From: Acetohalobium arabaticum DSM 5501
GTDB taxonomy: Bacteria > Bacillota > Halanaerobiia > Halobacteroidales > Acetohalobiaceae
Length of the DNA stretch: 32,000 bases
Assembly: GCF_000144695.1 (NCBI RefSeq)
Contig: NC_014378.1
Location: 1,790,043-1,822,042, forward strand
Direction: 5' to 3'
Positions 2,987 to 31,554 of this stretch are shown here, one piece after another. The notes under the pieces were generated by a model. The model was not told the DNA's origin. It did not search any database and worked only from the letters and a program-made list of their open reading frames with translations. The position numbers and the translations under genes were made by a program. The first letter of the stretch is position 1; every line of letters begins with the position of its first letter.

Positions 2987-3017
2987 CTATTTTCTCCTTT
3001 CTTAATAAAATAATACC

Positions 3018-3740: not shown

Positions 3741-3749
3741 CTATCTCCC

Positions 3750-5787: not shown

Positions 5788-5800
5788 CCTCCCTTCTAGA

Positions 5801-6151
5801 TTACTCTTTTGGCCTAAAGATAGCAGCCATTAAGAATCCAATCACTATCGAAGCACTGATTCCAACACTGCCTAATTCTAAAATTCCAGCAAAGAGGCCG
5901 AGAAATCCATTTCTATTAACTTCATTTAATACTCCTTTAGTTACTACATGTCCAAAATTAATAACTAACGCTGTCACTCCGGCTCCAGCGAAATCAATTA
6001 AAGGCTGGAATAGACCTAATCCGGTTAGAATAGCTCCTACTGTCACCATCGTCACTAGTAAATGGGCTGGCGTATAATTAGTATAATCTAGAAATAGCTG
6101 GCCTAGGCCACAGATTAAACCGCCAACTAAAAAGGCAGTCAAATAATTCAT
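5801..6151 (-). CDS. spoVAEB: stage V sporulation protein AEB (membrane part)
   Basis: 116-aa hydrophobic ORF, the same length as B. subtilis SpoVAEB and paralogous in style to SpoVAC. Its ATG directly abuts the spoVAD stop. Confidence 0.85.
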   Translation of the reverse strand: MNYLTAFLVGGLICGLGQLFLDYTNYTPAHLLVTMVTVGAILTGLGLFQPLIDFAGAGVTALVINFGHVVTKGVLNEVNRNGFLGLFAGILELGSVGISASIVIGFLMAAIFRPKE

Positions 6152-7213: not shown

Positions 7214-7235
7214 TCTATTTCCTCCAATAGGATAA

Positions 7236-7682: not shown

Positions 7683-7688
7683 AGCTTC

Positions 7689-7892: not shown

Positions 7893-7931
7893 TAAACCAC
7901 TCTCCTTGGCTGTTTAATTCACCTCTAAAAA

Positions 7932-7962
7932 TATTATGTTCGGTATAATAAATTTTAATTCA
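7932..7962 (-). promoter_or_regulatory. forespore sigma-G/F-type promoter candidate for the spoVA operon
   Basis: Minus strand reads TGAATT - 18 nt - CATAATA, close to the sigma-G consensus (GAATA ... CATAnTA). It sits 40 nt upstream of the ATG at 7892. Confidence 0.4.
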
Positions 7963-7970
7963 ATAACAAA

Positions 7971-8000
7971 ATAAAAAAGCTACAGGAAAATCCTGTAGCT
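7971..8000 (-). terminator. intrinsic terminator ending the sigF-side transcript
   Basis: 9-bp stem 7978-7986 / 7992-8000 (agctacagg/cctgtagct) with a 5-nt loop, followed on the minus strand by TTTTTT. Confidence 0.8.
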
Positions 8001-8567: not shown

Positions 8568-9329
8568 TCAGTCCAACTCTTCCCTTACTTTATCTATAAT
8601 CTTCCTTTCCAATCTTGATACCTGTACCTGAGAAACACCTATTCTGTCTGCTACTTCCTGTTGGGTCTTTTCATCAAAAAAACGCAGCTTTAGAATTAGC
8701 CTTTCTCGTGTCTTGAGCTCATCGATTACTTCACGCAAAGCCAATCTATCTATTTCCTGTTCCTGATTTTCACTACTAGCAGCTAATTGATCCACTAATT
8801 CTATTGAATTACCTTCATTTTCATAAACTGGCGAATAGATTGAAGTAGGTTCTCGAACAGCTTCTAAAGCATTAACTATTTCTTCCTTATCTACTTCCAT
8901 TTCCTCAGCAATCTCTTGTATAGTTGGCTCTCGATTCAATTCAGCAGTTAGACTCTCTTTAACTTCATTTATTCTATGTGCTCTTCGCTTTAGTGACCGA
9001 CTAACTTTAACAGCATCATCATCCCGTAAAAATCGCTTAATTTCACCAATAATTAACGGAACTGCATATGTAGAAAACTTAACATCACGTTCTAAATCAA
9101 ACCGCTCGATTGCTTTTAATAAACCGATACTACCAATCTGAAATAATTCCTCATAATCATAATTTTTATTAGCAAATCGATGGGCTACTTTCAAGACTAG
9201 CTTTACATTGTGATTAACTAACTTATCCTTAGCCTTCTGGTCGCCAGCCTGAGCCTTCTTTAATAACTCTTTGGTTTCAGCTTCAGATAACAGCTCTTTT
9301 TGGGGAATATTGAGACTATTATTATTCAT
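8568..9329 (-). CDS. sigF: RNA polymerase sporulation sigma factor F
   Basis: 253-aa sigma-70 family ORF (regions 2-4, C-terminal GVSQVQVSRLE HTH), third gene after spoIIAA-spoIIAB. Confidence 0.9.
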   Translation of the reverse strand: MNNNSLNIPQKELLSEAETKELLKKAQAGDQKAKDKLVNHNVKLVLKVAHRFANKNYDYEELFQIGSIGLLKAIERFDLERDVKFSTYAVPLIIGEIKRFLRDDDAVKVSRSLKRRAHRINEVKESLTAELNREPTIQEIAEEMEVDKEEIVNALEAVREPTSIYSPVYENEGNSIELVDQLAASSENQEQEIDRLALREVIDELKTRERLILKLRFFDEKTQQEVADRIGVSQVQVSRLERKIIDKVREELD

Positions 9330-9341
9330 AAGATTCCGCCC

Positions 9342-9773
9342 CTAATTAACTTTCTTTTCTGTCTTCTCTGGACTTGTGATCATTCTTATTTTGGTACCCT
9401 GCTCTAATTCTGAATCGATACTTAACTCATCCATAAAAGAATCAATAAATACTAATCCTAATCCCATTCTATCAGCCGTAGTATAAGAAGGTTCACAGGC
9501 TTGTTCAATATTTGAGATTCCCCGACCTGAATCTTCAACTTCAATAATTAATTTATCACCGTCAATCTCTAAATTAATTCCAATAATACCTGTCTCATCT
9601 TTATAGCCGTGGATAATTGCATTTGATACTGCTTCAGAAACTGCTACTTTAATCTCCTCAATCTCTGAAATAGTAAAATCCAGCTGGGCTGCAAATGAAG
9701 CTACTGTTACTCTAGCTAAGCCAATATTATCGGAAATACTCTTTAACTCCAACCTGGCATTATTCTTACTCAA
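9342..9773 (-). CDS. spoIIAB: anti-sigma F factor (serine kinase)
   Basis: HATPase_c motifs (EAVSNAIIHGY, DSGRGI, GLGL). I place the start at TTG 9771-9773, 8 nt after AGGAGG, giving 143 aa. The longer track ORF would overlap spoIIAA. Stop codon is TAG. Confidence 0.85.
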   Translation of the reverse strand: MSKNNARLELKSISDNIGLARVTVASFAAQLDFTISEIEEIKVAVSEAVSNAIIHGYKDETGIIGINLEIDGDKLIIEVEDSGRGISNIEQACEPSYTTADRMGLGLVFIDSFMDELSIDSELEQGTKIRMITSPEKTEKKVN

Positions 9774-9795
9774 TCTAATTACCTCCTTAATTTTT

Positions 9796-10134
9796 TTATA
9801 CTGCTTGTAGAGCTTCTTGCTCATCAGTAAATACATCAACTATCTTTAAAATTCCTGATAATTCAAATACCTGTTTGATGGAGTTATTAACATTGATAAT
9901 CTTTAATTTTCCTCCATGATTATTTATCTGCTTATATCTACCAATGATAAATCCTAAACCAGAACTATCAATAAAATCAACATTCTTTAAATTAAGAATC
10001 ATATTCTGAATTCCCACTTCTCCTGTCAGTTTCTCATCAATCCGTTTGCGCAGTGTATCAACTGTATGTAAATCCAGACTTCCATCAATTCTGACTATTA
10101 AATTGACTCCTACTCTCTCTATTTCTAGTTCCAC
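9796..10134 (-). CDS. spoIIAA: anti-sigma F factor antagonist (STAS domain)
   Basis: 112-aa STAS ORF with the DSSGLG phosphoserine motif. GTG start preceded by TAAGGAGG. Confidence 0.9.
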   Translation of the reverse strand: MELEIERVGVNLIVRIDGSLDLHTVDTLRKRIDEKLTGEVGIQNMILNLKNVDFIDSSGLGFIIGRYKQINNHGGKLKIINVNNSIKQVFELSGILKIVDVFTDEQEALQAV

Positions 10135-12896: not shown

Positions 12897-13711
12897 TCTA
12901 TTACCTCCAGAACTTTAGTAACTAAATTAATAAAGTCTTCCTTAACCCGTTTAGTAGTCTCAATTACTTCCATATGGTCGAGGGGTTCAGAAAGGATTCC
13001 AGCTGCCATATTGGCAATACAGGAAATCCCTAATACTTCACAATTCATATGATTAGCTACAATCACCTCTGGTACTGTTGACATTCCTACAGCATCAGCA
13101 CCTAGACGGGACATACAGCGCACCTCAGCCGGAGTTTCATAATTTGGTCCTGTAGTTGCTAAATAAACCCCTTTGCGGGTATTAACTCCAATCTTGCTAG
13201 CTGCTCTTTCTGCTGCAGTAATCAACTCTGGACTGTAAGCCTGGGACATATCGAGAAAACGAGGCCCAAATTCTTCTTCATTAGGACCAACTAGAGGATT
13301 GGTCCCCATAAAATTGATGTGATCATTAATAATCATTAAGTCACCTACATTATAATTTCTATTTACTCCCCCAGCTGAATTAGTAATAATTAATTTATCT
13401 GCTCCCAGAAGCTCCATCACCCGCACCGGAAAGGTTATTTCTGCCATATCATATCCTTCATAATAATGAAACCTTCCCTGCATAGCTATAACTTTCTTGC
13501 GTCTTAATCTACCGCTAACTAGCTGTCCAGCATGTCCTTTAACAGTAGAGACGGGAAAATTAGGAATCTCACTATATGGTATTGATGTAGCTTCTTTAAT
13601 TTCATCAGCCAACTCTCCTAGACCTGAACCTAAAATTAAAGCAATCTCCGGTTTAATATCAATTAGATCAGCTAAATATTCTACAGTCTCTTCTACTTTA
13701 AGTAGTTCCAT
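12893..13711 (-). CDS. punA: purine nucleoside phosphorylase (PNP family, inosine/guanosine type)
   Basis: 272-aa ORF with GSGLG, GRFHYYEG and VGMSTVPE motifs. 4-nt overlap with pdp. Confidence 0.9.
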   Translation of the reverse strand: MELLKVEETVEYLADLIDIKPEIALILGSGLGELADEIKEATSIPYSEIPNFPVSTVKGHAGQLVSGRLRRKKVIAMQGRFHYYEGYDMAEITFPVRVMELLGADKLIITNSAGGVNRNYNVGDLMIINDHINFMGTNPLVGPNEEEFGPRFLDMSQAYSPELITAAERAASKIGVNTRKGVYLATTGPNYETPAEVRCMSRLGADAVGMSTVPEVIVANHMNCEVLGISCIANMAAGILSEPLDHMEVIETTKRVKEDFINLVTKVLEVIE

Positions 13712-13729
13712 ACTTCTTCTCCTTTCTTT

Positions 13730-14905
13730 TTAACGAAACAGTTTTTCTTTAAAGCTCGTCCCAGCTGGGGGCTTAGTAACCTCCAGTAAATCAGCAATAG
13801 TAGCAGCCAGATCTGCAAAAGTATCTCTAGTTCCTAGATTAACATCTCTTTTAATCCGTTCTCCAGAAACCAATAATGGAACATATTCTCTAGTATGGTC
13901 GGTCCCTTCATAAATTGGATCACAACCGTGATCAGCTGTAATAATTAATATATCTTTCTCAGTTAATAACTCAATAATTTCAGGCAGACTGGCATCAAAC
14001 TTTTCTAAAGCCTGAGCATAGCCTTGTGGATCATTTCGGTGGCCGTACTCCTGATCAAAATCAATTAAATTAGCAAAAATCAAGCCTTCCTTATCCCTAG
14101 TTAAGAACTTACATATATCCTGGACTGCTTCCTGATTATTGGTACTATGTATTGAATCAGTAATTCCCCGCTCAGAAAAGATATCTTCAATCTTTCCTAC
14201 AGCCATGACTGATTTTCCTGCTTGGCTAACAGAGTCCAACAGCGTCTCCTCTGGCGGCTGTAAGGAAAAATCCTCTCGCCTTTCAGTCCGTTCAAAACTA
14301 CCCAACTCACCAACAAAGGGCCTGGCTATTACTCTACCTACTGCATGAGGACCAGTCAATATCTTGCGAGCAGTTCTACAAATTTCATAAAGTTCCTCTA
14401 CTGGAATAACCTCTTCATGGGCCGCTATCTGAAAAACGCTGTCAGCCGAGGTATAGACAATCGGTTTTCCTGTCTCTAAATGTTCAGCCCCCAGTTCTTC
14501 AATAATTACTGTTCCAGAAGCCGGTTTATTCCCCAACACTTCCCTACCAATCTGCTCTTCAAATTCTTCAATCACTTCTGCAGGAAATCCTTCGGAATAA
14601 GTAGGAAATGGTTCAGACGAAACTAAACCGGCCAGCTCCCAGTGGCCTGTAATCGTATCCTTACCCTGTGAGGCCTCCTTCATCCGCCCGAAAACTCCTG
14701 CAGGATTATCAGTTTGAGCTATACCTGAAATCTCAGTAATATTTCCTAACCCTAACTCTTCTAAATTAGGCAGTTCAATATCGCCTACTGCTTCAGCTAC
14801 ATGTACTAAAGTATTAGCACCTTCATCACCAAAGTCAGCAGCATCCGGCAAAGCACCAATACCTACGCTATCTAGAACGATTAATACTACTCTATCGATC
14901 TCCAT
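13730..14905 (-). CDS. deoB: phosphopentomutase
   Basis: 391-aa ORF with [15 protein letters not shown] and ADHGCDP motifs of the DeoB alkaline-phosphatase superfamily. Confidence 0.9.
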
Positions 14906-14919
14906 TCTTTACCTCCTAA

Positions 14920-15564
14920 TCAGTAAATTACCGTCTTAGTAATGAAACTCATCAATATAGGTGTTAAAAATGATTCAATTAATCCGGCCGTAACTAAAAT
15001 AACAGCTAATATGATCATTAAGGTAGAATAACCAAAAAAATATTGAGCAAAATTAATCGGCATTCTTTTAAAACGGCTTTTAAATAGATTAAGTGCAAAA
15101 GCTATTCCGGCTGTTCCTGCTATAATTAAACTGGGAATGGCAAATAGATTATGTGGTACAATAGAAACAACAGCAAACAGAAAACCTTTAACTGCCAACT
15201 CATCAACTAAAAACCCAACAGCAAACCCTAAAATAAAACCACGTAAAAAGACAAGAATAGGAATTATCGGCATTCCGACTATGGAAATCCCCAGTATCCA
15301 GACTAAAAGAATTAACTTTAAATTATAAAAAACTGCTTCTTGGGCTAAAATTTCCTGTTGGAGAACCAATTTTCCCTTGAAATTTTGAAAAAAATTGGCT
15401 AAATAATTCACTAATTGATTCTTTTCTGCATAACTTAACATCTTAACTGCAATAGCCCCAAAAGTAACCCCGCTGATAAAAATAATAATTAAGAACAAAA
15501 GAATAGAAAGATTACGGCGCATAAACTGAATACTGCTAGTTCCAAGCTGTCTTAAACTAAACAT
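14920..15564 (-). CDS. spoIIM: stage II sporulation protein M
   Basis: 214-aa polytopic membrane ORF. Length, topology and the HNLFAIP motif fit SpoIIM. Confidence 0.75.
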   Translation of the reverse strand: MFSLRQLGTSSIQFMRRNLSILLFLIIIFISGVTFGAIAVKMLSYAEKNQLVNYLANFFQNFKGKLVLQQEILAQEAVFYNLKLILLVWILGISIVGMPIIPILVFLRGFILGFAVGFLVDELAVKGFLFAVVSIVPHNLFAIPSLIIAGTAGIAFALNLFKSRFKRMPINFAQYFFGYSTLMIILAVILVTAGLIESFLTPILMSFITKTVIY

Positions 15565-15630
15565 TATCTTTCCCCCTAATTTACTCCAACTTATTAAATC
15601 ATACTCAAACTTAGAGGGAAATATAACACT

Positions 15631-16329
15631 TTAAATCTGGAGAAAACCTTCTTCAATAATTAATTTACCTATCTGCTCAGCAGCCAGTACATCTTCATGA
15701 GAATTAGAACTAGCTGCTACTAAGGTAATACCTGTTTTAAACTTTTGGGCTGCTATAATTGCCCGCTGGGCTGATTCTTTAGCTGGCATAACTCCACTCT
15801 TTTTAAAAGTTCGAGCTACAGTTCCGGTTATTACCTCTGGAGCTCCATGATTATAGGCAGCATCATAAGCTGTCCCTCCAGTATCAGTAATGACTAACAC
15901 TACTTTACCTTCAAAATCAACTAATTTCACTATCTCAGCCCCTAAATTAGGGATTATCGTATCAATTTCTACTCCTGCCCTCTTTATTCCTGTTAAAGCC
16001 AATTGAATATTATCCTTACGTTCCTCATTAGAAGCCAGGCGAGGCTCAGTAGCAATTATCAATTCTGTATCATTCTTCAATGCTTTCTTGCCAGCAAAGT
16101 AGCCAATCTTTTCGGGATTAACTGTAACTGGAGTTGAAACACAGTCAGGACTGGCCCCAAAAACATCAATAGCCCCCGCATCTAAAGCAGTTTCTACTGT
16201 TGTTGACATACTGATCAGATCAACAATCATAACTACATCACCTTTTCTGGCTGCTTCTGCTGCTCCCGAAGCATTAGAAGTAATATTTAAAGTAGGTATC
16301 CACTCCTGATTACTGGTTAATGTGGCCAC
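15631..16329 (-). CDS. hypothetical protein (weak 2-phosphosulfolactate-phosphatase-like motif)
   Basis: 232-aa soluble ORF. Only VVMIVDLISMSTTVETALDAGA recalls the ComB-type VIDxLRATS motif. No confident family. Confidence 0.5.
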   Translation of the reverse strand: MATLTSNQEWIPTLNITSNASGAAEAARKGDVVMIVDLISMSTTVETALDAGAIDVFGASPDCVSTPVTVNPEKIGYFAGKKALKNDTELIIATEPRLASNEERKDNIQLALTGIKRAGVEIDTIIPNLGAEIVKLVDFEGKVVLVITDTGGTAYDAAYNHGAPEVITGTVARTFKKSGVMPAKESAQRAIIAAQKFKTGITLVAASSNSHEDVLAAEQIGKLIIEEGFLQI

Positions 16330-16366
16330 TGTATATACCGCCTCCTTAACATAGTCTTATCTTCCA

Positions 16367-16924
16367 CTAATCTATATTATTCTGTTGTAGATGATTTAAT
16401 AAATACTGAAGACCAATTACTGTTTTAGCATCAGAAATCTCTGGAGTATATAACTTCTGTTTTATCTTTTTTAGCGGCATTTTAACTAATTCAATAAATT
16501 CGTCACCATCAGTCTTTTGACTATACTTCGATAAATCCTGAGCTAAGTAAAGATGGATCTCTTCATTACAAAAACCAGGTGAAGTATAGAAACTTCCAAT
16601 CTGTTGTAAATCTTCAGTTCTATAGCCTGTCTCCTCCTCTAATTCTCGGCGAGCACAGCTTTTAGGATCCTCATTAATTTCAAGAAGACCAGCAGGAAGT
16701 TCCAGTAATACCTTCTCAATAGGATTCCTAAATTGACGTACCAGTATCACTTCCTTATCTTCGAACAAATAAGGAATAACCGCTACTCCACCGGCATGTT
16801 CTACTATCTCTCGTTTAGCCTTATTATTATCCGGCAGCTTTACATCATCCAGTCTTAGATTAACTATTCTTCCTTCATAGATAGATGTACTATTTAACTG
16901 CTCTTCAATCAGTGATTCATTCAT
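16367..16924 (-). CDS. nudF: ADP-ribose pyrophosphatase (Nudix hydrolase)
   Basis: 185-aa ORF with Nudix box GLLEINEDPKSCARRELEEETGY. Stop codon is TAG. Confidence 0.85.
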   Translation of the reverse strand: MNESLIEEQLNSTSIYEGRIVNLRLDDVKLPDNNKAKREIVEHAGGVAVIPYLFEDKEVILVRQFRNPIEKVLLELPAGLLEINEDPKSCARRELEEETGYRTEDLQQIGSFYTSPGFCNEEIHLYLAQDLSKYSQKTDGDEFIELVKMPLKKIKQKLYTPEISDAKTVIGLQYLLNHLQQNNID

Positions 16925-16942
16925 CCTCTTCTCCTCCTTAAG

Positions 16943-18034
16943 TTAAAGACTAACCCCTAATTCTTCCAAAGCCAAAACTCCAGTTATACCGGCTGTCATA
17001 AAGAATTCCGGATCCTCTGTTTCATCACGCCCCATAGTATTAACTCCAATATCTGAGTTGCTTATTAATTCTAAAACATCACTCCCATCCCTATATCTAA
17101 TATCATGTTTATAATTAAGATTGGACTCTATTAACTGACTGTTTAATCTTTTCTGCTTATTAGCTGCTGATAATTTAGGGACTCCAACTACTGCTTCTCT
17201 TAAAGCAATCTCCTCTAGAACAGTCAATGTATGATGGCTGAAGCCGTAATGCCGCTTTCTTTCATCACTAAAGCTAATTCGGGGAATAGCCAATGGAATA
17301 CCACCTAAATTAGAAACTGCATTGATAATCTCTCCCTGCTCTATACCGCTAAAACCATATTTAGTCCCGGTCCCTACTACTCCAGGACCCATAGCTACAA
17401 TGATGACATCAGCTTCAGCTACTTCTTTAGCTGCTGCCAGACCTGAATAAATATTAACCGCTTCCAGGTCTCCACCAAAAGCATGACCAATGGTAATTGT
17501 AGTATCTAAAAGTTCTTTCTGCTGCAGTTCAGCTACTGTATTACTTAATTTCAGCGGTAAAGCAGCAGCATCAGTCATAATGTAAGCTATTTGTAAAGAA
17601 AAATTACTTAGTCTATTCAACACTATAACAGTCGGAGCCAACATACTATGCAGTGAACCGATAATTACAGGATTTCCCTCGAGAGAAGTAAAGTTCTTAA
17701 TCTCTTGCTGCCAGGAACTTGCTTCTTCTTCTACACTAAGAGTCTTAAGTTGAAAGGGAGAATACCTAAGCTTCATGATATGGCCTAAACCATCTAGATC
17801 CCTGGGTTCATTACCCTCAATATAGATAATAAAATCATAACCGCCGGTGCCTAAATCTAATTCAACAGCAGTCGTATTTAAAATCACTTCATCTCCTAGG
17901 CTAACCTCTCCCGTCAGATCATCATAATTGATTGCCCGTCTTTTCTCTCCAGTCTTTAATTCTACTTCTACTTCAGTCAAACCTGGTCGTTGCTTGATGA
18001 TTTTAGCAATCTTTCCTCTTTTAATTGCTAGCAA
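16943..18034 (-). CDS. DUF3866-like conserved protein
   Basis: 363-aa ORF. The N-terminus (AINYDDLTGEVSLGDEVILNTTAVELDLGTGGYDF) matches my memory of the DUF3866 family of Firmicutes. TTG start after GGAGG. Confidence 0.5.
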   Translation of the reverse strand: MLAIKRGKIAKIIKQRPGLTEVEVELKTGEKRRAINYDDLTGEVSLGDEVILNTTAVELDLGTGGYDFIIYIEGNEPRDLDGLGHIMKLRYSPFQLKTLSVEEEASSWQQEIKNFTSLEGNPVIIGSLHSMLAPTVIVLNRLSNFSLQIAYIMTDAAALPLKLSNTVAELQQKELLDTTITIGHAFGGDLEAVNIYSGLAAAKEVAEADVIIVAMGPGVVGTGTKYGFSGIEQGEIINAVSNLGGIPLAIPRISFSDERKRHYGFSHHTLTVLEEIALREAVVGVPKLSAANKQKRLNSQLIESNLNYKHDIRYRDGSDVLELISNSDIGVNTMGRDETEDPEFFMTAGITGVLALEELGVSL

Positions 18035-18200
18035 AATAGCAACCTCCAGACTATTGATAATTATTCAGTATTATCTATTCTTCTCCTGCTTCTATAGAAT
18101 ATTTTTCTGAACTCCGATATAAAAATAACCAAGATTATTATTTGCTACTTTCTCTTTAATCATACAGTTAAAGACTAACAGATAATACAATATTAATTAA

Positions 18201-18221
18201 GAGAGGCCCCCAAGGCCTCTC
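18201..18221 (-). terminator. probable intrinsic terminator after the M20 peptidase gene
   Basis: 8-bp GC-rich stem gagaggcc/ggcctctc with a 5-nt loop, followed on the minus strand by the U/A-rich tract TTAATTAATATT. Confidence 0.5.
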
Positions 18222-18242
18222 CGCAAATAAACTTTATTTTCA

Positions 18243-19373
18243 TTATGCATAATTCTTCTTCAAATCTTCCATAATAGCCAAATTATATTCTACAGTCTGA
18301 ATTAAATCATCTGCTCTGATGTTCTCTTTAGGAGTATGATTATCCTTAACTCCAATCCCCATGTTAATAGCAGGAATTCCTCGATTATTAAAAATGTTAG
18401 TATCACTCCCGCCTCCAGTAGCAACTAACTTCGGTTCAATTCCTAAACGTTTAGCACCACTGACGGCTGCCTGAACAACTGGAAGATTACTATTTAGGTA
18501 GAAAGCTGAAAATAATCTATTATTCTCAATATTTACTTCAGCTCCAACCTTCTCTGCTGATCTTTTAAAGATATTGATCATATGTTCCATCTGAATATCC
18601 AGCTTCTCCTCATCTCTACTTCTGGCTTCTCCTTTAAGCTCTACTCTATCCGGAACAATATTAGTAGCCTTTCCGCCTTTAATAACTCCGATATTGGCCG
18701 TAGTCTCTTCATCAATCTCTCCTAATTTCATATTTGATAGAGCAATACTAGCCACCTTGATAGCATTGATCCCTTTTTGTGGATTCTTCCCAGCATGAGC
18801 AGATCTTCCTCTAACAACTACCCTAATCTTCTCTTGAGCCGGACCTTCAGTAATTATAGTACCTATCTCTCCATCAGAATCATAAACAATTCCCATATCG
18901 GCTTCCAATCTATTAAAGTCTAAATTCTTAGCTCCTAGTAATCCTGCTTCCTCACAGACAGTAAATACTACCTCTATATCCCCATATTCGTAGTCATTTT
19001 CAATTAACTGCTCCAAAGTAGCCAAAATAATTGTAATTCCTGCCTTATCATCAGCACCTAAAATAGTCTGTCCCTGACTGAAGATAACCCCATTTTTAAT
19101 AATCGGCTTAATATTCTGGCCGGGCACTACAGTATCCAAATGGGCTATTAAGCATATAGTAGGCAGTTCAGGATTTGTTCCCTCCAATTTCCCAATTATA
19201 TTACCGGTATAGCTTCCAATTCGGGCCCCGGTATCATCCTCCCACACCTCTAGACCTAAGTCTGATAACTCAGATTTCATTCGATTGGCCATCTGCCGCT
19301 CAAATCTGGACTCACTATCTATCTGGACTAACTCCATAAATTTATCAATAATCTCGGTCCGGTCAAGCATCAA
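18243..19373 (-). CDS. M20/M42-family metallopeptidase (peptidase T / YqjE-like)
   Basis: 376-aa ORF with metal-ligand contexts AHLDTV, GADDKAG and CEEAGLLGA. Confidence 0.8.
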   Translation of the reverse strand: MMLDRTEIIDKFMELVQIDSESRFERQMANRMKSELSDLGLEVWEDDTGARIGSYTGNIIGKLEGTNPELPTICLIAHLDTVVPGQNIKPIIKNGVIFSQGQTILGADDKAGITIILATLEQLIENDYEYGDIEVVFTVCEEAGLLGAKNLDFNRLEADMGIVYDSDGEIGTIITEGPAQEKIRVVVRGRSAHAGKNPQKGINAIKVASIALSNMKLGEIDEETTANIGVIKGGKATNIVPDRVELKGEARSRDEEKLDIQMEHMINIFKRSAEKVGAEVNIENNRLFSAFYLNSNLPVVQAAVSGAKRLGIEPKLVATGGGSDTNIFNNRGIPAINMGIGVKDNHTPKENIRADDLIQTVEYNLAIMEDLKKNYA

Positions 19374-19495
19374 AAAATTCCCCTCTCTCTAGAATATTTA
19401 CTACTTTATTAAATATTATGATTCTAGATATGATTCCGTTATCCTGCTTGAATATGAATATTTAACCTATTTAATAAATTAAGTTCTTTTATCTT

Positions 19496-20578
19496 TTAAT
19501 TAGATGATATATATGATATATCTACATACTGAGAAGTAGCAGCATTCAATAATGCTCCATAATTAAGCTTAAACTTCAGAATATCTCCTACTTCTATTCC
19601 TGCTTCATAATCTGTAACATCGATTATTAAATGATCGCTACTTGCCTCTTCTATCTCTATATCTTCAGCCAATGGAGTTAATCCCTTCATCTTTATATCC
19701 TGACGGCCAATACCTAAGATAGCCCTTCTTCTAACTCCGGTTTTAGTAATCTTCCTTCTTTCTCCAAAAGCATTCTGACCCCGCCTTCCTTCTGGCTGCA
19801 CAGGCTTCTTCTTTACTTCAATTACTTCCGCTGCTAAGAGAAAAGTTTCCTGATAAGTATCAGGAAACGGACTGCGGTCAATTACATTGCTGCCGAGTAG
19901 AATTGTCTCTCCTACCCGCAGTTGAGTAATTTCATCAGGTAAGCCTTTATTTCTTAATCGAGGCAGTGAACTACTATTACCGCCTGAGATCTGTTGGATA
20001 TTCACCCCAAACTTATTATTAATCTCATTCTTTAAATCGATCAATAACTGCATATTATTTTCTGAAGGTAAAACCCCGCCAAAACAGGCTAAATTAGTAC
20101 CTAATCCAGTTAGTTCAATATTCTCCAGATCCAATATCTCTGCGGCTATATCAATTACATCTTCAGGCATAACTCCTTCTCTGCGGTCGCCTACATCTAC
20201 CATCAAGATAATCCGATGCTTCTGATTCATTTCTTTAGCTACCTGGTCCAAAGCTTTAATTACTTCCAGCTCTGAATTAAGGCTGATATCTGCATACTCT
20301 ACTACTCTATCAACCTCACTTATCATCGGTATTCTAAGCAGCATTAAAGGAATATCAGGCGAGACTAAGTTCTCCTGCATATACTTCAAATTTTTAATTC
20401 TGGAATCAGCTAACCCATCGACTCCTCCGGCTAACATAGCCTCAGCAATCTTTATGTCAGCACAGACTGATTTAGTAACCCCTATAATCTCTATATCTTC
20501 ACTGTCAGCTAGATTTACTATTCTTTCTGCATTGGCTGTTACTTTATCTAAATCTACTTCCAGTCTTGGATAACTCAT
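19496..20578 (-). CDS. alanine/ornithine racemase family PLP-dependent enzyme
   Basis: 360-aa ORF with an N-terminal TIM-barrel and a PLP-lysine context (GVTKSVC). Its size matches ornithine racemase-like proteins. Confidence 0.7.
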   Translation of the reverse strand: MSYPRLEVDLDKVTANAERIVNLADSEDIEIIGVTKSVCADIKIAEAMLAGGVDGLADSRIKNLKYMQENLVSPDIPLMLLRIPMISEVDRVVEYADISLNSELEVIKALDQVAKEMNQKHRIILMVDVGDRREGVMPEDVIDIAAEILDLENIELTGLGTNLACFGGVLPSENNMQLLIDLKNEINNKFGVNIQQISGGNSSSLPRLRNKGLPDEITQLRVGETILLGSNVIDRSPFPDTYQETFLLAAEVIEVKKKPVQPEGRRGQNAFGERRKITKTGVRRRAILGIGRQDIKMKGLTPLAEDIEIEEASSDHLIIDVTDYEAGIEVGDILKFKLNYGALLNAATSQYVDISYISSN

Positions 20579-20644
20579 ATCTTTTCCTCCAGAGTTTTAT
20601 CTTTATACTCCTTAAAAAGAAGTTCTAATGCTTCATCAAATTTG

Positions 20645-20673
20645 AGTATATCATTTCATTAATATACTTGCAA
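20645..20673 (-). promoter_or_regulatory. sigma-A-type promoter candidate for the racemase-like gene
   Basis: Minus strand reads TTGCAA - 17 nt - TATACT, about 65 nt upstream of the ATG at 20578. Confidence 0.45.
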
Positions 20674-20734
20674 GCGACATAATAATATGGAAAAGTTAAT
20701 TAAGCTCTATGCTAGTAATTTCAATCTTCATTCT

Positions 20735-20805
20735 CAAAATAAAATAGATAGTCATCGGCTATAAATTTCACCTTTTCTAGTGAATGTATAGCCGATACTA
20801 TCTAT
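20735..20805 (-). terminator. intrinsic terminator after mtmC
   Basis: 19-bp interrupted stem (20744-20763 / 20787-20805, one bulged C at 20753), followed on the minus strand by TTTTATTTT. Confidence 0.6.
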
Positions 20806-20835
20806 CTTTCAAATAAATAAGTTTTTAATAAATAA

Positions 20836-21480
20836 TTATCCTACTAAATCATAAACAACCTTAACAGCTTGGTTAGCTGTTTCTCCATAACCATCAGCTT
20901 CGATTTCTTCAGCCCATTCTTCTGTAACTGGAGCTCCACCAACCAGTACATCAAATTGTTCCCGTAAATTCTCTTCTTTCAAAGTATTAATTAATTTTTC
21001 ATTTTCTGCCATTGTTGTAGTTAATAAAGAACTAGTACTAATTACATCAGCATCAACCTCTTTTGCTTTAGAAATGAAATCATCTACAGAAACTTCGGTA
21101 CCGAGATCATAAACATCCATTCCGTTAGCTTCTAATAAGGTTTTAACAATACCTTTTCCTATATCATGAACATCTCCTGCTACTGATCCTATTACAACAG
21201 TAATATTTTCTTCTTGGTCTTTTCCTTGCTCAACTGCAGCTTCCTTTAAAATATCAGAAGCTGCTTTCATAGCCTCAGAACAAGACATTAATTGTGGTAA
21301 AAATACTTCTCCTTGATCAAATAAATCACCTACTTCAGTAATTCCCACTGTAAAACCTTTCTCAATCATTTTTAAAGGATCAATATTTTCTTCCACAGCG
21401 GTTTCAGCTAATTCAACAGCTTTATCTACATTGCCATCACAAACTGCTTCAGCAGCCTTTTCAAACAACTCTTCACTCAC
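20836..21480 (-). CDS. mtmC: methylamine-specific corrinoid (B12-binding) protein
   Basis: 214-aa ORF with an N-terminal helical cap and a B12-binding domain carrying GDVHDIGK (DxHxxG), SSLLTTT and VGGAPV. GTG start after GGAGGG. Lies directly downstream of mtmB. Confidence 0.8.
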   Translation of the reverse strand: MSEELFEKAAEAVCDGNVDKAVELAETAVEENIDPLKMIEKGFTVGITEVGDLFDQGEVFLPQLMSCSEAMKAASDILKEAAVEQGKDQEENITVVIGSVAGDVHDIGKGIVKTLLEANGMDVYDLGTEVSVDDFISKAKEVDADVISTSSLLTTTMAENEKLINTLKEENLREQFDVLVGGAPVTEEWAEEIEADGYGETANQAVKVVYDLVG

Positions 21481-21515
21481 TCTGAATCCCTCCAGACAAA
21501 TTTTATTAATTGAAC

Positions 21516-21550
21516 AATTATTCAGAAGGGGAATCCCCCTCTGAATAATT
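21516..21550 (-). other. strong intercistronic hairpin between mtmB and mtmC
   Basis: 11 bp (21516-21526 / 21540-21550) plus 4 G-C pairs (21528-21531 / 21535-21538) with one A/C mismatch and a 3-nt loop. Starts 3 nt after the mtmB TAA. The downstream tract is only moderately U-rich. Confidence 0.5.
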
Positions 21551-21552
21551 AT

Positions 21553-22941
21553 TTAATAATCTTTAATATCCAAGCCAATTTCTTTTAATGTTTTAGCAGC
21601 CTTTTCATAAACTTCCAGATACTCATCATTAGGATCAAGGGTAACTACATCATAACATTCTTGAAACTTCTTACCCTTAGGAGCATCATTATAATTGTTT
21701 TCATAAGTTGCTACTAATTCGTCCAATATTTTATTTACTTTATTAAGTTCCATTCCTGCTACTGAATAAGCAGCTTCTCCCATAAAGCGAGCTTCCATAC
21801 CAGTAGTATAATCAGTTTCTACTCCTTTAGCTGATGCTACGCCTGACAATAACCCACGCCCACTGGCAGTATCAGTAATTGACTGGGCAGCTGTTTCTAA
21901 TAAGCACATCTCAGTACATGGACCAGCTAAAGTGTAATATTGATTTGAAGTTATCAGGTCAGTATTGGCTGCAATAGCTCTGGCACAGTGTCCTGCTACC
22001 TGTAAAGTCTCCCTAGCTGTAGTTATTCCCCAACGTACATGAACGGGGCCATCTAGGTGATAATCAGCGTCAGTCATTAAAAAGGAATTTAGATGAGTAG
22101 CCACATCTACAATAGTAGTTTCCTCTAAACCTCCAGCATAACCACCAAAGATCGGCATCTGTTCGCACATGATGACATCCCCATTTAAGACATAATGAGC
22201 AGTGAAGGTCAATGCACCTACATCGATCTTCAGCTCATTTAACTGGGATACCTCATGGCTATCAGATTCTTTCATCCCGCCGTCATGGTCTGCAGCAATA
22301 CATCCGGCAGGACTCAATGCTGTTTCGCAGCCCTACAACCCTGTACCAGGATAGCCAGCTCTCTTACAAGCATGACGAATCAACTTACCTTCAGATTTAG
22401 AAGCTTTTATTTCCCATGGACTACCTGGAGCTGGTTGATTACCATTTATTGTCTCAAAAACCCCATTTACAATCGTATCAACCAATGGCTCCTGAGCAAA
22501 TGCCTCATGCATCTCCACAAATAAATCTTCTGAAACCGGTGCCCCTGTTGGCCCACCTTGTATAATAGGAGGCTCAGTATCCTTATGCGTTCTACTGACT
22601 AACTCTACAGCATCCTTACCCTCACCCAAAGTTACACTCTTAGGAGCAGCCTTAATCGCTTCTAAGACTTCTTCTTCAGTATACTCTATCACTCGACCTG
22701 TTTCTTTACAGTAAGCTCCAGTTTCAACTAACATTTCAAGTCCAGCCTGAAAAAGTCTATCTATCAAATCCTCATCTGTAGGAATAAATTCTCCTTCTTC
22801 AAATTCAATATCATACTTTTCTTTCATCTTCTTCGCATTTTCAGGAATAACTTCATAATCCCATTCGTCTTTATCCACTTTTGGACCTGTTAAAGCACGA
22901 TTATAAGCTTCAAAAACATCTACTTTTTTCTTGGTAGTCAT
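21553..22941 (-). CDS. mtmB: monomethylamine methyltransferase with an in-frame UAG (predicted pyrrolysine) at codon 203
   Basis: Track ORFs 22333..22941 and 21553..22317 share one frame and are separated by one TAG plus 5 sense codons. The joined 462 codons run collinear with archaeal MtmB as I recall it (blocks QGGPTG, SHEVSQLNELKID, EQMPIFGGYAGG, AGPCTEMCLLE, SITDTASGR). ATG start after GGGGGAG. Confidence 0.85.
22333..22335 (-). other. in-frame amber codon (candidate pyrrolysine recoding site)
   Basis: Forward cta gives minus-strand TAG, in the context ...RAGYPGTGL-TAG-GCETALSPAG... Confidence 0.8.
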
Positions 22942-23002
22942 ATTGCTCCCCCTTTTTTAATTTTGCTCTTTTTAAAAAATTCTAATAATTAAATATTTAA
23001 TC

Positions 23003-23013
23003 TATTAAGAAAC
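23003..23013. repeat. copy 1 of 11-nt direct repeat TATTAAGAAAC in the mtmB upstream region
   Basis: Exact 11-mer, also present at 23142-23152. The two copies flank the tandem repeat. Confidence 0.6.
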
Positions 23014-23071
23014 TATCCCTCCTCCTAAGTAATCTTTAGGGGTATCATAATTAACTTCCCCATTAATAAAT

Positions 23072-23104
23072 TATATCTTTATTATATCTTTATTATATCT
23101 TTAT
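23072..23104. repeat. three perfect tandem copies of an 11-bp unit (tatatctttat) upstream of mtmB
   Basis: 23072-23082, 23083-23093 and 23094-23104 are identical. On the coding (minus) strand each unit contains TATAAT. Confidence 0.9.
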
Positions 23105-23141
23105 TAACTTACTACATGAATTATTAAAGTTATTTTTGATA

Positions 23142-23152
23142 TATTAAGAAAC
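23142..23152. repeat. copy 2 of 11-nt direct repeat TATTAAGAAAC
   Basis: Exact match to 23003-23013. Confidence 0.6.
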
Positions 23153-23170
23153 ATTCTCTTAATCAATACT

Positions 23171-23210
23171 AAAAAACAAAAATCCCTATCAAGAATATTC
23201 TTGATAGGGA
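23171..23210 (-). terminator. intrinsic terminator after the NSS transporter / small-subunit pair
   Basis: Perfect 28-nt palindrome 23183-23210 (tccctatcaagaat/attcttgataggga), followed on the minus strand by TTTTTGTTTTTT. Confidence 0.8.
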
Positions 23211-23219
23211 TAAATTAAA

Positions 23220-23315
23220 TTATTGATTCTTAAATGCAATATTAAGACAGATGCCTAATCCACCACCTAACACAACTATAGCAAATAGCAACATCATAAC
23301 TGCACTGTTGGACAT
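23220..23315 (-). CDS. MetS-like small subunit of the NSS transporter (31 aa, not in the ORF track)
   Basis: Minus-strand ATG at 23313-23315, TAA at 23220-22. Product MSNSAVMMLLFAIVVLGGGLGICLNIAFKNQ is a single TM. GGGAGG lies 10 nt upstream, inside the end of the transporter gene, and the start is 2 nt after the transporter stop. Confidence 0.6.
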   Translation of the reverse strand: MSNSAVMMLLFAIVVLGGGLGICLNIAFKNQ

Positions 23316-23317
23316 AA

Positions 23318-24838
23318 CTACATTACCTCCCTATTAGAAATAAGCTCATCGGATTTTTTACCTTTCCAGGGTCGAAGACTCATAATTATTCCTAATACGA
23401 TAACTCCAGCTGCTACTGACCAGCCATACTTAAGTATAGCATTCATTGGATAACCACCATAGGGAGCAGCCAATTCTTTCATTGTATTCTGTACAAAAGC
23501 AACACCTAAACAGATCGGTGTTATTACTCTAATCATAATATCCCACCAGGAACCGATAGCAAAATCGGATAATCTGTTAGCATGCTCTCTGATAATACTG
23601 ACCTTATAGAACCAGCCGATAATTATACATTCAACTAACCCAGCAAGAGCAATTCCAAACTGATTAATAAAGTGGTCCACAATATCTAAAAAGTAGAGGC
23701 CTGCTCCAGTAGTATAAAGTAAACTAATTACTGCACCAACTGAACAGACATAATTAACAGCTGCCTTACGGCCGATATCGAATTTATCCCTAACAGCTGC
23801 TATTACCGCTTCCAGAATAGAAACACAGGAAGAAAAACCGGCAATAGCTAAGGCTAAAAAGAAGATTACTCCAAACAAAGATCTAAAGGCCGGCAACATA
23901 TTAATTGCCTTTGGAAATGCTACAAAAGCCAACCCGATACCACTGGTTACTACTTTAGAAATCGGCTCTCCAGTCTGAGCAGCCATATAACCTAAGATAC
24001 CAAAAACTCCAATTCCAACAATAAAACTGAACGCACTATTGGATAAAGCAGTAATAAAAGCATTATTTACTATATCTGAATCTTCCGGCAAATAACTTGA
24101 ATAAGTTATCATAATTGCAAAACCAACACTTAAAGTAAAGAAGATCTGTCCATAGGCTGCCAACCAGACTTTAACATCAGTTAAAGCACTGAAATCCGGC
24201 TCTAAAAATTTATTAATTCCAGCCATAGCCCCAGGAAGTGTAACACCCCGAATAGTAATGATAATCATAAATAAAGCTAATAAAGGCATAAAGATTTTAG
24301 ATGCCTTCTCAATTCCTTCTTCAATTCCATTATATAGAATGATATAACTGACTCCCCAAACGATTAATAAACTAATTAAAACACTAAAATTAATCCCGCC
24401 TATCTGAGAAATACCATCAGTTATCTGTAAAAAGTCGCCAAAAAAGTAAGCTTCGGGATTCTCTCCCCAAACTCTATTGAAAGAAAATGTAACATAATTC
24501 AAACTCCAGCTAATAACTACTACATAATAAGTGGCAATCACAAATGAAACTAAAACCTGCCACCAACCTAGCCATTCCCACTTTTTCCCCATCTTAGCAA
24601 AGGAGAACGGTGCCGAACCGCGCATTTTATGGCCGAAACCGAATTCCATAATTAAAATAGGAATCCCTGCTGTTAATAGCGCAAAGAAGTAAGGAATTAA
24701 GAAGGCGCCCCCTCCATTATCGTAAGCCATGTAGCTGAATCGCCAGATATTACCTAAACCAACTGCCGAACCGATTGCTGCTAGAATAAAGCCTATTCTA
24801 GAACCCCATTGTCCATCATCACTGCTTTCTACTGACAT
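23318..24838 (-). CDS. sodium-dependent transporter, NSS/SNF family (MetP-like)
   Basis: 506-aa 11-12 TM ORF with the NSS signature WGSRIGFILAAIGSAVGLGNIWRFSYMAYDNGGGAFLIPY. Stop codon is TAG. Confidence 0.85.
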   Translation of the reverse strand: MSVESSDDGQWGSRIGFILAAIGSAVGLGNIWRFSYMAYDNGGGAFLIPYFFALLTAGIPILIMEFGFGHKMRGSAPFSFAKMGKKWEWLGWWQVLVSFVIATYYVVVISWSLNYVTFSFNRVWGENPEAYFFGDFLQITDGISQIGGINFSVLISLLIVWGVSYIILYNGIEEGIEKASKIFMPLLALFMIIITIRGVTLPGAMAGINKFLEPDFSALTDVKVWLAAYGQIFFTLSVGFAIMITYSSYLPEDSDIVNNAFITALSNSAFSFIVGIGVFGILGYMAAQTGEPISKVVTSGIGLAFVAFPKAINMLPAFRSLFGVIFFLALAIAGFSSCVSILEAVIAAVRDKFDIGRKAAVNYVCSVGAVISLLYTTGAGLYFLDIVDHFINQFGIALAGLVECIIIGWFYKVSIIREHANRLSDFAIGSWWDIMIRVITPICLGVAFVQNTMKELAAPYGGYPMNAILKYGWSVAAGVIVLGIIMSLRPWKGKKSDELISNREVM

Positions 24839-24958
24839 TATTACTCTCCTCCTTCATAATCATGATTCATTATTAATTATTGTTGCTACTTTGTAATTAC
24901 TACTACCTTCTAACTAAGACCGTTTTCTGCTCCTCCCTTCTTTCACATTTACTAATAT

Positions 24959-24986
24959 AATATATTATGTTCTTAAAGATTGTCAA
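24959..24986 (-). promoter_or_regulatory. sigma-A-type promoter candidate for the NSS transporter
   Basis: Minus strand reads TTGACA - 16 nt - TATATT, leaving a 5' UTR of about 110 nt. Confidence 0.45.
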
Positions 24987-24997
24987 CTTATAATCTC

Positions 24998-25047
24998 AAA
25001 AAACAAAAAAAATGAGTAGGAGACGTATTTTCTCCGCCGTCCTCTCA
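24998..25047 (-). terminator. probable terminator after the GT4 gene
   Basis: Imperfect hairpin (25019-25023/25031-25035, with outer pairs 25013-25016/25044-25047), followed on the minus strand by TTTTTTTTGTTTTTT. Confidence 0.45.
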
Positions 25048-29285: not shown

Positions 29286-30074
29286 TCAACTAGCCTTTAT
29301 CTCTAATCTTAATTTATCAGCAATTTTGGCAATAAACTGCGAATTAGTCGGTTTGCCGCTTTCGGTACTTACAGAGTGACCAAATAATTTATTAATAGCC
29401 TCAGTATTACCACGCTCCCAAGCTACCTCTATAGCATGGCGAATTGCACGTTCCACTCTACTAGGCGTTGTATTAAACTTGCGGGCAACCAAGGGATATA
29501 ATTCTTTAGTAATAGCACCCAATAATTCAACTTCTTCTACTACCATCCCTATTGCTTCCCGTAGATATAGATAACCTTTAATATGAGCAGGAACTCCAAT
29601 TTCATGCATGATATCAGTAATTCTTACATCCAGATTCTGACTCTTATCTGTAGTAGCATTAGCAGTAGCAGTTACACCACCCTGTTGTCCAACAGGAGTC
29701 ATCAACTGTTCAATTCGATCTACTAATTTCTCTAAGTCAAACGGCTTCAGAATATAATAATTTGCTCCTAACTCTACTACTTTCTGTGTCAATTCTTCTT
29801 GACCAAAAGCAGTCAACATAATAACCTTTAAATCATTGATTTTACCGTCTTCCTTTAATTCTTCCAATACTCCAATACCGTCAAGATGAGGCATAATAAT
29901 GTCAAGAATTACAACATCTGGGTCTTTTTCTTCAATTAAATCTAAAGCTTCCAATCCATTATTTCCAACACCAATTACTTCCATATTTTCTTGTTCTTCA
30001 ATAAATTCTCTAACTAGCTGGCAAAACTCTTTATTATCATCTACTAACAATACTTTAGTATTATCCTTCTCCAT
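29286..30074 (-). CDS. spo0A: sporulation master response regulator Spo0A
   Basis: 262-aa ORF with a receiver domain ([20 protein letters not shown]) and the Spo0A-specific C-domain ([15 protein letters not shown]). Confidence 0.95.
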
Positions 30075-30170
30075 ATTACACTCCCCCTTATGAATATAAT
30101 TATTAATTGTAAAATTTATGTATTCTTAACTATTTGTTTCTACATCAATTACCAATTTCCTCCTTTCAAA

Positions 30171-30210
30171 TAAAAAAACTAGAGAATTAATTTAAATTAA
30201 TTCTCTAGTT
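30171..30210 (-). terminator. intrinsic terminator after spoIVB
   Basis: 14-bp stem 30177-30190 / 30197-30210 with a 6-nt loop, followed by a T-run on the minus strand. The spoIVB TAG stop lies inside the stem. Confidence 0.75.
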
Positions 30211-31554
30211 TTGAGCCATTTTATCTTGTATTAAGCCTGCCTTTTCTATCATCCATTCTGCTAAAACACCATAGCCTTTAGTAGAATCATTGATAAACAC
30301 ATGGGTTACTGCGCCTACTAGTTTACCATTTTGAACGATAGGACTTCCGCTCATCCCCTGAATTATGCCTCCAGTTTTATTTAGAAGCTCATGATCCGTA
30401 ATCTTAACTACAAGACCTTTTTCATGGGGACTCTGCTGCTTCATAACCTCTACAATTTGAATCTGAAACTCTTCAATTTCATCATCCTCAACTACAGTAT
30501 AAATCTTTGCTGGTCCCCGCTTAACCTGCAATGCTGTAGCAACAGGAATCGGGTCTGGAAAGAACTTATTTGAAACAGTATGATTTAATTTTCCATAGAT
30601 ACCAAATCTATCATTCTTATTAATCTTACCCATTATCTGCTGGTTATCAAAGAAAGTTCCTAACTTTTCACCTGGTAAAGTATCATTTCCCCGCTGAATA
30701 CCTGAAATATCTGCTTTTACTATCTTACCTTCACTAATAGGCATCCGCGATCTACTATTAGGTTCAGTAATCATATGGCCTAATGCTCCATACATTTTAG
30801 TCTGCGGATCATAGAAAGTCATCGTTCCTACTCCTGTAGCTCCATCATCAATATATAAGCCAATCATATACCGACCTGAATGATTCTTTTTAGGTTCTAG
30901 ATTCTTAGTAATTAAACTTCCATTTCTCCTTATTTTCAACTTTAATACTTCCTGACGCTGACCATAATAATTAATCAGCTTAGATAAAGATTTCTTTCCT
31001 TCTACCCGCTGGCCATTAACAGCCAAGATTCTGTCTCCAACCTTAATTCCTGCTGAATTAGCCAGATAATATTTTTCATTATCAGTTCCTAAAACATAGG
31101 ACTTCTTAACTACTAATACTCCTTTTGATTCGAGTATAATTCCAACTGATTGGCCGCCAGGATAGACTTTAACCTGAGGAATAACGTTAACTGTTGCCTG
31201 CCGAATTGGAATAACACCGAATAGATTAAACTCTAAATCAATTTCACCTAAAACAGCAGACTTAATAGCCAAAGGATTACTGAGATCAACTTTAAAATAA
31301 TTATCATTTACCTGCTGACCATTAATCTTTAACTCTTCACTTTTATCGACACGGATATAGACAGGGAAAGGAAAGTCAATCTCTAGTAACTGCTTGTGGC
31401 CTTTAACTATCTGTAACTCTTCTGGAAAGCCAATTGTCGTAAGAAACATGGGAATTAATAAGGTAAGCACCAATAGACTAATGCCAAGATACAGGGAGGA
31501 TCTCTTCCATCTCTGCTTCACAGATTTAATCACACTCCTACACAGCCTCCCCAT
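30205..31554 (-). CDS. spoIVB: SpoIVB peptidase (S55) with PDZ domain
   Basis: 449-aa ORF with an N-terminal TM, a PDZ domain (GIKVGDRILAVNG), and catalytic contexts GALGH and GMSGSPI. Stop codon is TAG. Confidence 0.9.
   Translation of the reverse strand: MGRLCRSVIKSVKQRWKRSSLYLGISLLVLTLLIPMFLTTIGFPEELQIVKGHKQLLEIDFPFPVYIRVDKSEELKINGQQVNDNYFKVDLSNPLAIKSAVLGEIDLEFNLFGVIPIRQATVNVIPQVKVYPGGQSVGIILESKGVLVVKKSYVLGTDNEKYYLANSAGIKVGDRILAVNGQRVEGKKSLSKLINYYGQRQEVLKLKIRRNGSLITKNLEPKKNHSGRYMIGLYIDDGATGVGTMTFYDPQTKMYGALGHMITEPNSRSRMPISEGKIVKADISGIQRGNDTLPGEKLGTFFDNQQIMGKINKNDRFGIYGKLNHTVSNKFFPDPIPVATALQVKRGPAKIYTVVEDDEIEEFQIQIVEVMKQQSPHEKGLVVKITDHELLNKTGGIIQGMSGSPIVQNGKLVGAVTHVFINDSTKGYGVLAEWMIEKAGLIQDKMAQN

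Follow-up and report, generated by a model that had tools for sequence, protein, structure and literature searches.

The mtmB gene and its in-frame UAG codon

We analysed a stretch of 32,000 nucleotides (nt) from the chromosome of Acetohalobium arabaticum DSM 5501 (contig NC_014378.1, positions 1,790,043 to 1,822,042; referred to below as the window and numbered from its first letter). The minus strand of the window carries mtmB, which encodes a monomethylamine:corrinoid methyltransferase and contains one in-frame UAG, followed by a gene for a corrinoid protein. The original prediction, made from the letters alone, had joined two open reading frames (ORFs) across this UAG into an otherwise intact enzyme gene, had placed the UAG near the position expected for pyrrolysine (Pyl) and had taken the arrangement as a sign of pyrrolysine decoding. 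The position of the codon in the Pyl column, the presence of a pyl locus in the organism and the conservation of the gene all support this interpretation. The genes and the codon concerned are as follows.

21553..22941, minus strand: mtmB, monomethylamine:corrinoid methyltransferase (PF05369, PDB match, published listing)
22333..22335, minus strand: in-frame UAG, codon 203, assigned to pyrrolysine (MtmB1 alignment, homologue column)
20836..21480, minus strand: mtmC-like gene for the cognate corrinoid (B12-binding) protein, 214 residues (GTG start, GGAGGG ribosome-binding site)

The interval 21553..22941 is a single minus-strand frame of 1389 nt, comprising 462 codons and a terminal TAA, and its lone internal stop is the TAG (amber) at 22333-22335. 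This is codon 203, in the context RAGYPGTGL-TAG-GCETALSPAG. The two ORFs that it joins, 22333..22941 (202 residues, ATG start) and 21553..22317 (254 residues, TTG start), share the frame and are separated by the TAG and by 15 nt, GGC TGC GAA ACA GCA, coding for GCETA, exactly as the prediction had it. The conserved blocks that had been quoted on the two sides of the TAG (QGGPTG, SHEVSQLNELKID, EQMPIFGGYAGG, LDGPVHVRWG, AGPCTEMCLLE and SITDTASGR) are all present in the joined protein, and the predicted stretch of full-length MtmB that spans the Pyl residue is AGYPGTGL-Pyl-GCETALSPAGCIAADHDGGMK. A strong Shine-Dalgarno sequence, GGGGGAG, lies at 22946-22952 on the minus strand and ends 4 nt before the mtmB ATG; direct reading of the sequence ahead of the TTG at 22317, after the UAG, revealed no Shine-Dalgarno sequence. 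The 70 nt flanking the TAG are identical in the Logan assemblies of SRR060971, SRR059978 and SRR059979. A sequencing error was considered and is ruled out by the agreement of these three independent run assemblies.

The joined protein was searched with X substituted for the TAG residue. It matched the Pfam family MtmB (PF05369) with 791.2 bits (E = 3.7e-238) over profile positions 1-450 of 450, and the chains of Methanosarcina barkeri MtmB1 (PDB 1L2Q, 1NTH and 1TV2) with E = 1.8e-177 across residues 1-457. In the HMMER alignment the X of the query pairs with X, the pyrrolysine, at residue 202 of 1L2Q; the entry 1TV2 writes K at this position. The window gene is thus a full-length mtmB with its UAG exactly in the Pyl202 column, and the numbering of 203 against 202 results from one extra residue near position 48 of the window protein. 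Acidic residues matching E205, E229 and E259 of the M. barkeri enzyme are retained; these residues reportedly line the pyrrolysine pocket and have a catalytic role (Hao et al., 2002). No NCBIfam model matched the joined MtmB, and an exact protein look-up with either X or K at position 203 returned no record. The likeness to M. barkeri MtmB1, the founding pyrrolysine protein, extends to length (462 vs 458 residues), to the conserved blocks on both sides of the UAG and to a dedicated corrinoid gene; identity to Methanosarcina MtmB homologues is about 58%.

Homologues were then compared at the DNA level. A scan of one genome per species gave 385 stretches encoding relatives. All 85 gene copies with an identity of 53% or more, bacterial and archaeal together, have TAG as the aligned codon. 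Sense codons in the Pyl column (for M, W, N, F or L) were found within the scan only in paralogues of about 30% identity; these belong to the same Pfam family, and the window gene falls in the TAG group. The other bacterial Pyl-type MtmB proteins (from Thermincola, Desulfotomaculum acetoxidans, Desulfosporosinus orientis, Desulfobacula, Dehalococcoidales, Lachnospiraceae and others) are 60-70% identical, with TAG in the same column and an adjacent corrinoid gene, and the nearest homologue among the species representatives is only 70% identical to window MtmB. Identity is higher after the TAG than before it in Thermincola (75.9 vs 61.4%), in a member of the Desulfobacterales (67.1 vs 59.9%) and in Methanosarcina (64.5 vs 49.3%), the reverse of the pattern expected for a dead gene. 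Judged by these comparisons, the sequence past the UAG is under purifying selection, i.e. translated.

The prediction had further held that pyrrolysine decoding is rare in Bacteria; Pyl-type mtmB no longer is, as 26 of the best 77 loci from the scan are bacterial. The holders include Thermincola, Peptococcaceae, Desulfobacula and other Desulfobacterales, Coriobacteriia, Lachnospiraceae, Butyricicoccus, Dehalococcoidales, Syntrophomonadaceae and one spirochaete. It had also named Acetohalobium and Desulfitobacterium as examples. The first is the window organism itself; Desulfitobacterium hafniense is listed in the 2013 table under mttB, not mtmB (PMC3639795).

Two further sequences bear on the Pyl column. 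A Logan contig of SRR15661548 (L082, 554-1951) encodes a homologue of MtmB that shares 62% identity with the window protein and has a genuine TGT (Cys) codon at the column, in the context GGG ATA TGT GGA. Genes for a corrinoid protein and a URO-D-type methyltransferase come next. The homologue appears to be an unusual close relative of the Pyl enzymes in which Cys replaces Pyl. A database protein with 'Q' at the column (P0137) proved on a DNA-level check to be a TAG translated under another genetic code.

An mtmB with UAG in A. arabaticum is already known from the literature. Supplementary file 1 of a 2013 study (PMC3639795) lists 'mtmb' of this organism at 1811595-1812983 on the minus strand with UAG at 1812377, and this entry corresponds to the window gene in its 1389 nt, its strand and the offset of the UAG, 782 nt from the left end. 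The same supplement gives mttB and mtbB with in-frame UAG in A. arabaticum, and PMC3941956 names 'MT with Pyl (Acetohalobium arabaticum...)'.

Pyrrolysine genes of A. arabaticum

The 32-kb window contains no tRNA gene and no PylS match. A profile built from six PylS sequences gave 2805 matches, of which the 120 listed did not include A. arabaticum. The pyl locus was reached by searching representatives clustered at 50% identity with Thermincola PylSc, which yielded about 20 full-length clusters; the representative P0255 was chosen because its amino-acid composition matched that of the window proteins. Its record reads 'pyrrolysine--tRNA(Pyl) ligase large subunit [Acetohalobium arabaticum]'. 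The contigs with the pyl genes derive from SRR059978 and SRR059979, two runs in which the mtmB region of the window is found too, and from SRR3924029 and SRR3924030. Run SRR059979 alone yields both a pyl contig (L086) and a contig with the window mtmB region (L004). The locus runs in the order pylT(CUA)-mttB(UAG)-mttC-pylSn-pylSc-pylB-pylC-pylD. On contig L085 its features are the following.

297-368: tRNA-Pyl with CUA anticodon (ARAGORN)
556-2016: mttB, TAG at 1543-1545 (Rfam PYLIS_3 match at 1543-1642)
2177-2809: corrinoid protein (TIGR02370)
2873-3157: pylSn (TIGR03912, 115.7 bits vs cut-off 51.15)
3184-4023: pylSc (TIGR02367, 303 bits vs cut-off 178.15)
4041-5147: pylB (TIGR03910, 474 bits vs cut-off 348.2)
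5164-7128: gene for a 654-residue hydantoinase-like protein (weak NCBIfam matches only)
7167-8339: pylC (TIGR03909, 409 bits vs cut-off 248.3)
8344-9150: pylD (TIGR03911, 262.1 bits vs cut-off 150.05)
9145-10014, minus strand: divergent LysR regulator (NF040786)

ARAGORN also found the tRNA-Pyl(CUA) on L086, at 26-97. All five Pyl proteins exceed the curated NCBIfam cut-offs of equivalog-type models. A. arabaticum is therefore a pyrrolysine-decoding organism with a complete pylTSBCD set. The search for pyl genes that the prediction had proposed thus recovered pylT, pylSn, pylSc, pylB, pylC and pylD, and their absence, which would have spoken against the idea, is excluded. The locus agrees with the earlier report of all five pyl genes in this organism, with pylSn preceding pylSc (PMC2933860), and with Table 1 of PMC3639795.

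Like mtmB, the mttB of this locus contains a single in-frame TAG and has a corrinoid gene downstream, and within the one organism a single tRNA-Pyl and PylS must serve both genes. The two differ in that mttB directly adjoins pylT and the pyl genes whereas mtmB is distant from them, the coordinates given in the literature being about 0.385 Mb for mttB and about 1.81 Mb for mtmB (PMC3639795 supplement). A neighbouring pyl locus is common for Pyl-dependent genes and not defining for them: pylS was found within 10 kb of mtmB, usually together with pylT, in 12 of the 26 bacterial loci.

Two other genes of the locus were noted. The 654-residue protein encoded between pylB and pylC resembles hydantoinase_A and has a faint similarity to GlmL/MutL mutase accessory proteins; it may be a helper for the radical-SAM mutase PylB, which is offered as an idea only. 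The LysR regulator overlaps the 3' end of pylD, and the NCBIfam model that it matches best is 'selenium metabolism-associated LysR' (251.9 bits vs cut-off 250). It is a candidate controller of the pyl genes in response to trimethylamine.

The mtmB-mtmC cassette and its surroundings

The features around mtmB, together with the TAG stops used elsewhere in the window, are listed below.

22942..23166, minus strand: putative promoter/leader of mtmB, 225 nt, with tandem repeats and a shared 11-mer
22236..22335, minus strand: Rfam PYLIS_1 (RF01982) match, 100 nt starting at the UAG (78.5 bits vs gathering score 70)
21509..21557, minus strand: hairpin at the mtmB-mtmC junction, an inverted repeat with 24-nt arms that overlaps the mtmB stop codon
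20728..20808, minus strand: intrinsic terminator after mtmC, a long hairpin followed by UUUUAUUUU
20603..23166, minus strand: the whole mtmB-mtmC cassette (leader, two genes, terminator), 2.56 kb
23182..23211, minus strand: terminator of the upstream SNF transporter unit, a 13-bp stem followed by a T-run
23220..23315, minus strand: MetS-like small-subunit ORF, 31 residues (NCBIfam NF033493)
23318..24838, minus strand: SNF (sodium:neurotransmitter-family) symporter of the upstream unit (ADL13226.1)
6152-6154 and 9342-9344; also 16367, 23318 and 30205: TAG stops of window genes

The B12-binding corrinoid protein that the prediction had seen after mtmB is encoded 72 nt downstream of it, within one terminator-bounded unit. 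The protein contains the Pfam domains B12-binding_2 and B12-binding, matches TIGR02370 with 216.9 bits (cut-off 215.3) and is identical to ADL13223.1. The terminator that closes the unit after mtmC has a folding energy of -33.6 kcal/mol (z-score -9.0). The junction hairpin between the two genes (-26.9 kcal/mol, z-score -6.5) is followed by no clean U-run; possible roles are partial termination and an effect on mRNA stability or processing that sets the MtmB:MtmC ratio. The order mtmB->mtmC in the window is reversed relative to most homologous loci, in which the corrinoid gene lies upstream of mtmB (58 of 59 archaeal and 22 of 27 bacterial copies, 80/86).

The leader contains three perfect tandem 11-nt repeats at 23070-23106. 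It also contains the 11-mer GAGGAGGGATA, at 23014-23024, which recurs at 459-469 of L085 ahead of mttB, with one occurrence per sequence; the two copies lie about 85-97 nt ahead of the mtmB and mttB starts, the distance for mttB being about 97 nt. When one mismatch is allowed, shuffled sequences give about 1.1 chance matches per window. The 11-mer could be a control element shared by mtmB and mttB, for which the statistical support is weak. A low-threshold Rfam scan of the cassette gave hairpin-type chance matches only.

Co-transcription of mtmB with the SNF transporter was considered and rejected, as the strong terminator of the upstream unit (-19.4 kcal/mol, z-score -6.4) lies between them. 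The symporter and its MetS-like partner are also present in a relative that has no mtmBC, so that the pair is probably unrelated to methylamine uptake. This relative is represented by a contig (L084, Logan ERR10664791) that aligns to window positions 25003..23167 (91.0%) and 20602..13458 (89.5%); where the window has the cassette 20603..23166, the contig has about 240 unrelated nt (2344-2582). The cassette is therefore a presence/absence polymorphism between A. arabaticum and a relative about 90% identical to it in DNA, in line with the prevailing opinion that Pyl-linked genes are transferred horizontally. At the cassette junctions, the comparison of window and contig showed neither repeats nor genes of mobile elements. 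The alignment suggests that the cassette may be a module recently gained or lost.

We also considered the PYLIS_1 match as a working recoding signal in window mtmB and rejected it on pairing, folding energy and shuffles. In the window sequence 10 of the 15 model pairs are standard, and the folding-energy z-score of the region is -0.17, a stability like that of shuffled sequences. Across 80 distinct sequences, 78.4% of the cells are paired, vs 76.7% when partners are shuffled within columns; the departures are mostly unpaired cells, not compensated changes. Covariation thus gives no support for helices that form and are kept by selection. Archaeal copies retain most of the helices (mean 12.7 of 15 pairs); bacterial copies (mean 9.8 of 15) and window mtmB do so to a lesser degree. 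The match most likely reflects homology within a conserved piece of coding sequence, and published work describes the PYLIS element as non-essential (PMC8211752, PMC3639795).

Several other features of the window were recorded. Besides the corrinoid protein, further window proteins are 100% identical to A. arabaticum records: ADL13226.1 (the symporter), ADL13232.1 (Spo0A), ADL13210.1 (sigma F), ADL13222.1, ADL13220.1 and ADL13218.1. The accessions ADL13224 and ADL13225 fall between those of the corrinoid protein and the symporter. Sporulation genes are dense at 3750-10134, 14920-15564 and 29286-31554 and include gerA-type genes, spoVA C/D/E, sigF, spoIIAB, spoIIAA, spoIIM, spo0A and spoIVB; the genome paper describes sporulation of A. 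arabaticum as 'not observed'. The 675 nt at 7893-8567, between sigF and a small ORF at the upstream end of the spoVA cluster, contain no ORF longer than 45 residues and no Rfam match at gathering thresholds. The plus strand has 7383 C vs 4413 G and 33 of the 34 scored genes lie on the minus strand, an asymmetry and orientation consistent with a leading-strand gene block.

Probable decoding of the mtmB UAG

We conclude, with a probability of about 0.93, that mtmB of A. arabaticum encodes a monomethylamine:corrinoid methyltransferase in which the UAG at codon 203 is translated as pyrrolysine. The insertion of pyrrolysine at this codon, the activity of the enzyme, its methyl acceptor and its regulation we infer or take from the literature. 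In the proposed mechanism, PylB, PylC and PylD, encoded by the locus elsewhere on the chromosome, would make pyrrolysine from lysine, and the split synthetase PylSn/PylSc would charge the tRNA-Pyl with its CUA anticodon. The charged tRNA would compete with release factor at the UAG, allowing the ribosome to finish the 462-residue MtmB. Pyrrolysine in the active-site cleft would then present methylamine, and the methyl group would pass to the Co(I) corrinoid carried by MtmC, whose gene is co-transcribed with mtmB. Unlike M. barkeri, the host is an acetogenic bacterium, and the final methyl acceptor should be tetrahydrofolate, leading into the Wood-Ljungdahl pathway, and not coenzyme M. During growth on pyruvate the UAG would terminate translation, so that nothing beyond the 202-residue fragment could be made.

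Four points weigh against this conclusion. A. arabaticum reportedly does not grow on monomethylamine or dimethylamine (PMC3035264, PMC5023251). No gene for a methylcorrinoid:tetrahydrofolate methyltransferase or for RamA-type reactivation adjoins mtmBC in the window. In two reviews of Prat et al. (2012), the experimental evidence for pyrrolysine is quoted for MttB 'and other proteins' (PMC11467909, PMC8211752). Finally, UAG is also a normal stop in this genome, ending 5 of the 34 scored window genes, which means that it can be decoded only in part or under certain conditions. A ribosome reading through the stop of SpoVAD would enter the next SpoVA gene (5801..6151) in frame, and one reading through that of SpoIIAB would enter sigma F (8568..9329) in frame. 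Because constitutive suppression would fuse such proteins, conditional expression of the suppressor is sensible. According to the same two reviews, the pyl genes are expressed and UAG is decoded on trimethylamine and not on pyruvate.

In a narrower version of the same conclusion the gene would be functional but cryptic or accessory. Pyrrolysine would be inserted, yet MtmB would be confined to removing methyl groups stepwise from trimethylamine, or would have a different small amine as substrate. It could not sustain growth on monomethylamine alone, because trimethylamine would be required to induce UAG decoding. The growth data fit it, as does the release of small amounts of monomethylamine and dimethylamine during growth on trimethylamine (PMC3035264). 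The trimethylamine-dependent pyl expression related in the reviews fits as well, and so do the insertion or deletion of the cassette relative to the close relative, suggesting a recent gain or loss, and the 11-mer common to the mtmB and mttB leaders, although the match of the latter is weak, as judged from the shuffles. Nothing contradicts this version, which we consider possible while thinking it the less probable form; it refines pyrrolysine decoding and is no alternative to it.

A related and somewhat more doubtful proposal is that the UAG in mtmB serves as a substrate gate. The pyl operon would be on only with trimethylamine, full-length MtmB would hence be made only then, and the shared 11-mer could tie the cassette to the same control. 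If true, the gate would account for an intact mtmB-mtmC yet no growth on monomethylamine alone.

The remaining explanations dispense with pyrrolysine altogether. According to the first, mtmB is a pseudogene inactivated by a nonsense mutation that leaves a useless 202-residue fragment. Besides the absence of growth on monomethylamine and the use of UAG as an ordinary stop, the splitting of mtmB into two ORFs by gene callers would agree with this. However, the TAG stands in the exact Pyl column common to all 85 homologues, the 462 codons contain no other stop and no frameshift (the gene is otherwise intact, as predicted), the downstream half is better conserved than the upstream half and the same organism has the complete pyl machinery; we therefore regard a dead gene as very improbable. 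The least probable explanation of all is a split gene, in which a second polypeptide restarts at the TTG at 22317, five codons past the TAG, and assembles with the first into a pyrrolysine-free enzyme, but that TTG has no Shine-Dalgarno sequence, the bridging GCETA aligns with the conserved MtmB residues GPETS, the catalytic residue of the family would be absent, and Methanosarcina has the same layout with a crystal structure (1L2Q) of a single Pyl-containing chain.

For pyrrolysine decoding in general the window gene adds nothing new, having already been tabulated and discussed. The small additions made here are leads: the cassette polymorphism, the reversed gene order, the unsupported PYLIS structure and growth substrates that do not match the gene content. 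Bacterial pyrrolysine decoding itself shows a conditional expansion of the genetic code, and it links anaerobic methylamine turnover to acetogenesis in hypersaline sediments.

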